A DNA stretch of 64,000 nt from Candidatus Neomicrothrix sp. (GCA_017852795.1 JAFMKU010000002.1:9221-73220), one strand, 5' to 3'. Counted from the stretch's first letter, positions 37,344-37,528 are shown. Notes: generated from the letters alone by a model not told the origin. Made by a program: numbers and translations.

Positions 37344-37371
37344 TTGACATTCGCTCCAACCGGGTTAGCGT
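37344..37371 (+). promoter_or_regulatory. candidate promoter of the leuA leader
   Basis: TTGACA (37344..37349), 16-nt spacer, TAGCGT (37366..37371, TAnnnT type). Predicted TSS about 37378. Confidence 0.4.
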
Positions 37372-37378
37372 GTTCTTC

Positions 37379-37414
37379 GTGAGTTGCTTCTCAACCCTTC
37401 TGCTTCTCGTGTAG
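37379..37414 (+). CDS. putative leuA leader peptide V/M-SCFSTLLLLV (four consecutive Leu codons)
   Basis: GTG 37379 (in-frame alternative GTG 37370), CTT CTG CTT CTC at 37397..37408, TAG at 37412..37414. Too short for the ORF track. Confidence 0.45.
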   Translation: MSCFSTLLLLV

Positions 37415-37436
37415 GCGAGCGCCCAGCGCGCTCGCC
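37414..37436 (+). promoter_or_regulatory. leader hairpin GGCGAGCGC-ccagc-GCGCTCGCC
   Basis: Perfect 9-bp stem that starts on the last base of the leader stop codon. Confidence 0.45.
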
Positions 37437-37439
37437 GAA

Positions 37440-37475
37440 CCCCTCGTGCCTCAGGCCGGGGGGTTTGTTGCTTTT
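37440..37475 (+). terminator. terminator-like hairpin with T-rich tail (putative attenuator)
   Basis: CCCCTCGTGCC-tca-GGCCGGGGGG, about 10 bp with one bulge, followed by TTTGTTGCTTTT. Lies about 55 nt upstream of the leuA ATG. Confidence 0.45.
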
Positions 37476-37528
37476 CGGTACCAGTTTTCGTTCCATCATT
37501 CATTGTCAACCTGCTGAGGGAGAGATCC

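Follow-up and report, generated by a model that had tools for sequence, protein, structure and literature searches.

The window analysed here, a 64,000-nucleotide stretch of Candidatus Neomicrothrix sp. DNA (GCA_017852795.1 JAFMKU010000002.1:9221-73220), carries leuA on the plus strand, preceded by a short leader whose features are collected in Table 1. Reading of positions 37100-37700 revealed every leader element named in the original prediction at the place given there. The two promoter-like hexamers with their 16-nt spacing, the GTG at 37379 and the mini-ORF with four leucine codons (GTG AGT TGC TTC TCA ACC CTT CTG CTT CTC GTG TAG) proved correct to the base, and the perfect 9-bp hairpin said to start at the stop codon (H1 in the following) was read with arms at 37414-37422 and 37428-37436, its first base being the G of that codon. 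The second GC-rich hairpin with its U-rich tract had been placed about 55 nt before leuA, and TTTGTTGCTTTT was read 54 nt before the ATG at 37529, while the proposed identity of the downstream gene was borne out by its TIGR00970 match. A second in-frame GTG lies upstream of the mini-ORF start, at 37370. The gene 5' of the leader (35855-37318) is divergent and encoded on the minus strand, so the hairpins terminate no other plus-strand gene. No further branched-chain amino acid gene was found among the 10 large window ORFs scanned. The mini-ORF and leuA share a reading frame, with the UAG at 37412-37414 as the sole stop from the GTG at 37379 to the leuA ATG, which is probably a coincidence, as relatives show corresponding distances that are not divisible by three.

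Table 1 Features of the leuA leader region (positions counted from the first letter of the window).
Feature	Position	Strand	Remarks
-35-like hexamer TTGACA	37344..37349	+	TTGnnn at equal distance in relatives
-10-like hexamer TAGCGT (TANNNT type)	37366..37371	+	16-nt spacer to -35; 7 nt to GTG 37379
Predicted leaderless leader ORF, 11 codons, (M)SCFSTLLLLV	37379..37414	+	UAG at 37412-37414
Putative regulatory Leu codons CUU CUG CUU CUC	37397..37408	+	codon bias in relatives
Hairpin 1 (H1), 9 bp, loop CCAGC	37414..37436	+	GGCGAGCGC/GCGCTCGCC; covariation
Predicted terminator hairpin	37437..37466	+	core 37440-37463, basal GAA:UUU pairs; scan and covariation
U-rich tract TTTGTTGCTTTT	37464..37475	+	predicted 3' ends of attenuated RNA at ~37470-37476
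Weak candidate antiterminator	37434..37449	+	37434-37438 with 37444-37446 and 37448-37449
Candidate antiterminator, alternative pairing	37426-37430 with 37445-37449	+	ribosome-mask folding
leuA Shine-Dalgarno region GAGGGAGAG	37516..37524	+	read from sequence
leuA, 2-isopropylmalate synthase, 571 aa	37529..39244	+	TIGR00970, 776 bits; NF002991, 836.6 bits

A generic sigma-70 scan of the leader reported no promoter, because TAGCGT agrees with TATAAT at just three of six positions; the hexamer does conform to the TANNNT pattern of Actinobacteria, and the relatives conserve this pattern. Judged from this promoter geometry, it is plausible that the leader RNA starts at or next to the GTG at 37379 and is thus leaderless. 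The predicted folding energy of H1 is −18.2 kcal/mol and that of the second hairpin −16.7 to −20.6 kcal/mol (37437/37440 to 37463/37466). A terminator scan flagged 37448-37467 together with its tail, as one of four sites in 1.2 kb against 1.2 expected. Folding of 37379-37528, which the original prediction had suggested as a check, gave z = −2.66, and the MFE structure pairs 37389-37398 with 37516-37525. H1 and the terminator are adjacent but compatible and can coexist in nearest-neighbour folding. On the reverse strand the leader hairpins come without a U-tail, and no second H1-like hairpin was found within the window.

Relatives were collected by a LeuA protein scan with one genome per species, which returned 80 loci, mostly from Acidimicrobiia MAGs and including Ca. 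Aldehydirespiratoraceae and Ilumatobacteraceae, the best being 84% identical; the window is therefore assigned to an Acidimicrobiia relative. The Leu run, whose absence from orthologous leaders the original prediction had named among its refuting outcomes, proved to be conserved, with a mini-ORF ending in L(3-5)-X-stop in 66 of 81 leuA upstream regions against 0.016 expected per region. In the relatives the leader mini-ORFs span 9-15 codons, mostly 10-11, and throughout the family exactly one codon separates the Leu run from the stop, which is UAG in 59 of 66 cases. In 56/66 loci (background P ~0.007), the ATG or GTG of the mini-ORF is preceded by a TANNNT box whose end lies 6-10 nt (mostly 7-8) upstream. 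Downstream, the spacing is similarly tight, as the first base of H1 lies at −1 or 0 nt relative to the end of the stop codon in 64/66 and the terminator hairpin follows 0-2 nt past H1 in 60/66, and the 14 nt at the end of the terminator hairpin contain 55% T compared with a background of 17%.

Both hairpins are supported by covariation. Over the alignment, 97.8% of their cells are paired compared with 92.0% in shuffles and about 50% in slid controls, and 47 cells are changed on both sides compared with 8.3 in shuffles; for H1 taken by itself 98.8% of the cells are paired, with changes on both sides at six of its nine pairs. The many G-U pairs in these hairpins make sense on the plus strand only. 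A covariance model (R1, from alignment A2) built from 60 relatives with the window left out matched the window at 37391-37481 with 76.8 bits (E = 2.4e-15) and also recovered the element in two loci (L074 and L044) that the regular expression had missed. These results bear on the reading that a chance mini-ORF lies next to ordinary 5'-UTR structure, or next to the terminator of another transcript, without any leucine sensing. GC-rich DNA is indeed rich in open frames, and the alternative frames are open in 56-59 of the 66 loci, but Leu run, spacing, codon choice and promoter placement are all conserved family-wide, no plus-strand gene ends here given the divergent upstream gene, and the reverse strand of the hairpins lacks a U-tail, so that we regard such an origin as very improbable. 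On this comparative evidence, the leader layout and its family-wide conservation are not due to chance, and the anatomy and conservation of the leader in Acidimicrobiia are established at the sequence level.

A search of Rfam 15 at the gathering score gave no match in the whole window or in 15 representative relatives, and at E <= 10 nothing relevant was found in 37250-37600, where Leu_leader (RF00512) and the leu-phe leader (RF01743) remained unmatched. One further match of model R1 in the window, at 62904-62993 (+), with 11.7 bits and E = 0.81, was discarded as a chance hit inside a long ORF; its sequence reads AUG UUC UUC CUG CUG CUU UGC GUA G, with the TAG out of frame. A metagenome scan for the H1 motif GGCGAGCGCCNCATA beside other codon runs yielded 80 loci, of which 79 were chance matches and a single one (L128) was a real leader of the leuA type. 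The closest LeuA relative (L001, 84%) has no Leu mini-ORF, H1 or terminator in the 300 nt 5' of leuA, and its upstream coding region reaches to within about 100 nt of leuA, which indicates that the leader can be lost or replaced between close relatives.

Codon choice in the leaders sets them apart from the genes that they precede, as CUU accounts for 43.5% of leader Leu codons compared with 5.1% of those in leuA coding sequences, an 8-fold enrichment. Along the Leu run its count increases from position −4 to −1 (6, 29, 33 and 40 of 66), and all but one of the 66 loci end the run with CUU or CUC. This gradient, together with the nearly invariant CUY at the end, points to the 3' end of the Leu run as the selected stall site. 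The base of H1 and the start of the last Leu codon are 8-9 nt apart, so that the front of a ribosome stalled there is expected to reach the base of H1. Ribosome masks left H1 intact at Leu1-2 and opened it in part at Leu3-4 and completely at the stop codon.

We consider a leaderless, ribosome-mediated, leucine-sensing leader-peptide attenuator, controlling transcription of leuA at an intrinsic terminator, to be the best explanation of this element, with a probability of roughly 0.65, since it fits a leader that precedes the cognate gene, encodes a Leu run with an increasing share of rare codons, has promoter boxes placed as for a leaderless RNA and combines covarying hairpins with a U-rich tail at tightly kept distances. 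From these features we infer translation of the mini-ORF, termination at ~37470-37476 and an effect of a stalled ribosome on termination. A 70S ribosome would load onto the RNA 5' end while RNA polymerase is still within the leader. With plentiful charged Leu-tRNA, it would pass the rare CUU/CUC codons, unwind H1, terminate at the UAG and depart, upon which both H1 and the terminator could fold, transcription would stop at ~37470-37476 with release of an RNA of ~95 nt, and leuA would stay off. With Leu-tRNA scarce, the ribosome would be held on the last Leu codons, where its leading edge would touch or enter the base of H1; termination would then lose efficiency and leuA would be transcribed. 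How a stalled ribosome might lower termination is the least certain step of this scheme. In the classical option, H1 would serve as protector and a very weak 2:3 helix as antiterminator, in the clade of the window only, the sole candidates in the window's RNA being 5-bp helices in which the released H1 3' strand pairs with the terminator 5' strand; alternatively, H1 wedged between ribosome and terminator might hinder closure of the latter.

A classical attenuation switch requires an antiterminator. Equilibrium folding with ribosome masks is blind to such a switch, as the terminator of the window forms with P ~0.85-1.0 in every ribosome-mask state and that of E. coli leuL also with 0.995 in all states. 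We thus used a kinetic-style test, in which the transcript is cut just before the 3' arm of the terminator and folded with ribosome masks. In the E. coli leuL control, pairing of the terminator 5' arm was 0.84 when the ribosome occupied the Leu codons and 0.05 when it was absent or further downstream. In the leader family the 5' arm was mostly free, its median pairing being 0.10-0.12 for masks at Leu1-2 and 0.3-0.4 for masks at Leu3-4, on the X codon or on the stop. In the clade of the window (L002-L020, L034) it became ~0.5 paired only when the base of H1 was masked, and in the window itself masking of the H1 5' strand raised the pairing from 0.10-0.21 to 0.56-0.57.

Two candidate helices emerged from this analysis (Table 1). 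The first, between the end of the H1 3' strand plus linker and the terminator 5' arm, has −2.5 kcal/mol alone, and the second, 37426-37430:37445-37449, is the sole helix in a −4.3 kcal/mol fold of 37423-37453. Both are 5-bp helices and weak, at −2.5 to −4.3 compared with −16.7 to −20.6 kcal/mol for the terminator, and they are restricted to the window clade, being absent in Ilumatobacteraceae and other clades of the same architecture. As a ribosome at the stop gives the candidate helix about the same probability as one at Leu3-4, the timing of ribosome release would have to be invoked. A column-pair scan of the alignment gave no further conserved helix apart from the trivial complementarity between the CUUCUU Leu run and G-runs, so that cut-transcript folding and column-pair scan found no stable or conserved antiterminator in any clade. 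Two other ways of coupling ribosome position to termination were rejected. A longer terminator, the lower part of its stem competing with the H1 base, predicts changes of opposite sign between clades and none in the window. A hungry-codon frameshift at CUU, carrying the ribosome through the stop into the terminator, finds no asymmetry in the frames (+1 open in 56/66, −1 open in 59/66) and, as a conserved mechanism, is contradicted by +1 stops before the terminator end in ten loci. The original prediction of a leaderless attenuator sensing Leu-tRNA charging thus holds up in the Leu run, the promoter geometry, the covarying hairpins and the T-rich tail, all of which recur in relatives, but the conserved antiterminator needed for a classical switch was not found.

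This result raises the question whether attenuation could proceed with no antiterminator helix at all, the folded H1 itself blocking termination, which we regard as unlikely, though worth setting out. With a ribosome on the last Leu codons, H1 would abut both the ribosome and the terminator through 0-nt junctions, and either the terminator stem would be kept from closing in the RNA exit channel, or H1 would hold or pause RNA polymerase or bind a factor; a ribosome reaching the UAG would melt H1 and termination would proceed. Such an arrangement would account for the conservation of the junctions in all clades, that is, for the fixed positions of H1 relative to the stop (64/66) and of the terminator relative to H1 (60/66), and it agrees with the single codon between Leu run and the mostly UAG stop, the climb of the rare-codon gradient toward the codon nearest H1, the masked folds, in which H1 survives stalls at Leu1-2 but is melted by a ribosome at the stop, the lack of a conserved RNA antiterminator in every clade and the conservation of H1 stem and loop sequence (CAUA, 53/66) beyond structural need. 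Against it, classical attenuators terminate with the 1:2 hairpin beside 3:4, nearest-neighbour folding allows H1 and the terminator together, and the window itself lacks the conserved H1 loop. The loop motif, in the form CNCAUAY (alignment A1, columns ~64-75), is kept in the 53 relatives even where the stem covaries, and the motif is the complement of the AUGU/GUG at the 5' end of the leaderless ORF; the loop of the window (37423-37427) and those of about 12 other loci are without it.

Control at the level of translation was also considered. Here, the vacated Leu run would pair with the leuA Shine-Dalgarno (SD) sequence and block leuA translation, a ribosome stalled on the Leu run would free the SD, and the terminator would act as a constitutive damper. 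Translational attenuation of this kind, as in the LEU element or the mycobacterial Cys sORFs, has been published for Actinobacteria (PMC1262725; bioRxiv 10.1101/834739), and the MFE fold of the leader pairs 37389-37398 with 37516-37525. Two Parafrankia loci (L064 and L078) encode a leader peptide M(M)RALLLLRCRGGA without a terminator, and by eye their Leu run CUGCUUCUUC is complementary, almost perfectly over 10 bp, to GAGGAAGCAG at the leuA SD, in agreement with the published LEU-element model and in contrast to the Acidimicrobiia form. Across the 66 loci of the family, however, the Leu-run:SD duplex equals composition-matched shuffles (mean −8.58 vs −8.65 kcal/mol, mean z = 0.0), and sequestration of the SD by the Leu run was rejected on this ground, its energy being no better than with a shuffled SD. 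In addition, the distance from mini-ORF to SD ranges from 73 to 206 nt, and both the start of H1 within the stop codon and the conserved terminator would be left unexplained. We therefore judge translational attenuation by this route to be improbable.

Several known leaders resemble the proposed attenuator. E. coli leuL (RF00512) likewise combines four consecutive rare Leu codons with a terminator before leuA and senses stalling for Leu-tRNA. It differs in having 28 codons, a Shine-Dalgarno site and its Leu run in mid-ORF, whereas the predicted leaderless ORF of the window has 11 codons, with a single codon between its Leu run and the stop; moreover, leuL possesses a clear 6-bp GC antiterminator, to which nothing comparable was found in the window family. 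Another such leader is that of ilvB1 of M. tuberculosis, for which a leader-peptide terminator/antiterminator switch was recently demonstrated (PMC13236596) and which shares with the window an uORF, branched-chain amino acid codons near the stop and a Rho-independent terminator. In the ilvB1 model, a ribosome at the stop masks the adjoining 3' hairpin, and one stalled at the regulatory codons leaves it folded (PMC13236596). This hairpin occupies the position of H1. In contrast to H1 and the terminator of the window, which are adjacent and compatible, it is an antiterminator that overlaps the terminator, and its switch was shown experimentally, while the one described here is a prediction.

Among actinobacterial leuA leaders, the LEU element/leuL1 (PMC1262725, PMC8079986) resembles the window in its leaderless Leu-run peptide just 5' of leuA. 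Its leaders run 5-8 codons beyond the Leu run and lack a typical terminator, whereas the Acidimicrobiia form stops after one codon and carries H1 and a U-tailed terminator. The pseudoknot proposed for the LEU element has a Leu-run:SD base stem (PMC1262725), while the duplex energies reveal no specific complementarity of this kind in the Acidimicrobiia form. The polycysteine sORFs of mycobacteria (bioRxiv 10.1101/834739) are similarly leaderless, with cognate codons at the 3' end and control in cis, but they unmask an SD and act on translation without termination, whereas the leader of the window has a conserved predicted terminator. For the leuA leader of Streptomyces, mutational work cited in PMC1262725 is at odds with classical attenuation.

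Leader peptides upstream of leuA have been described in C. glutamicum (PMC4046766, PMC3890552), in C. diphtheriae with the peptide MNRANLLLLRRGGSQA (PMC5784534) and in S. lividans, where leuL1 is leaderless and without a terminator (PMC8079986). The statement in the original prediction that such peptides are reported for leuA, ilvB and trp in Corynebacterium was thus broadly right (PMC4046766, PMC3890552). By the LeuA scan, the organism of the window is an Acidimicrobiia relative and not Corynebacterium-like, and the leuA leader known from Actinomycetes (LEU element, leuL1) is without a terminator (PMC1262725, PMC8079986). For leader peptides and attenuators on leaderless transcripts, too, there are precedents in Actinobacteria (PMC8079986, PMC4046766, PMC13236596), and our literature search returned no mention of leader peptides in Acidimicrobiia. 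We conclude that leuA leader peptides as such are already established in Actinobacteria and that the Acidimicrobiia form is new in that it belongs to a different class, has a conserved sequence and structure of its own and places the stop one codon after the Leu run, and is additionally distinct by its U-tailed terminator and the absence of an Rfam model.

These findings describe a family of cis-regulatory RNAs for leucine biosynthesis that is conserved in Acidimicrobiia and has not been catalogued before. They also extend predicted leaderless leader peptides to this class, which is known largely through metagenomes. The compact, rigid design with no recognisable antiterminator makes the leader a tractable system for the coupling of ribosome position to an intrinsic terminator. 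If the folded H1 were itself the switch, this would represent a new form of such coupling conserved across Acidimicrobiia; if the mechanism is classical after all, the element would be an ordinary attenuator that deserves an Rfam entry.

Several further features of the relatives' leaders were observed. The spacer between terminator and SD is C-rich and G-poor (mean C 43%, G 19%; 48 loci) and often contains short tandem repeats of CCGAACCC or CAACCGCAAC (e.g. L020 at ~2870-2990; L048, L054, L008). Its composition is reminiscent of a Rho-loading (rut) region or of a standby site without structure; the corresponding spacer of the window is short, unlike the C-rich type. In L002-L010, a third hairpin UCGUGC...GCACGA overlaps the U-tract (e.g. 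L005:2926-2950), and its 3' arm is also complementary to the terminator 5' arm CUCGUGCC, while L016, L020 and L057 carry a strong GGGGCCGG..CCGGCCCC hairpin at the same position. Four other loci (L036, L050, L056, L080), several of them in MAGs with non-actinobacterial labels, contain CUKCGACUUA (Leu-Arg-Leu codons) followed by a GC-rich hairpin, once or twice per leuA leader, and may represent another type of leuA leader. The leader ORF MTCWTSRNLALGNALLLSRAGGS of L079 belongs, by eye, to a textbook four-segment attenuator in which GGCGGGAG can pair with CUCCCGCC of the terminator 5' arm; with a weak R1 match of 19 bits, it stands in contrast to the family of the window. At 10058-12175 (+), 25 kb upstream in the window, is a gene for an RNA polymerase recycling motor ATPase of the HelD/HelR type, which is unrelated to the leuA leader.
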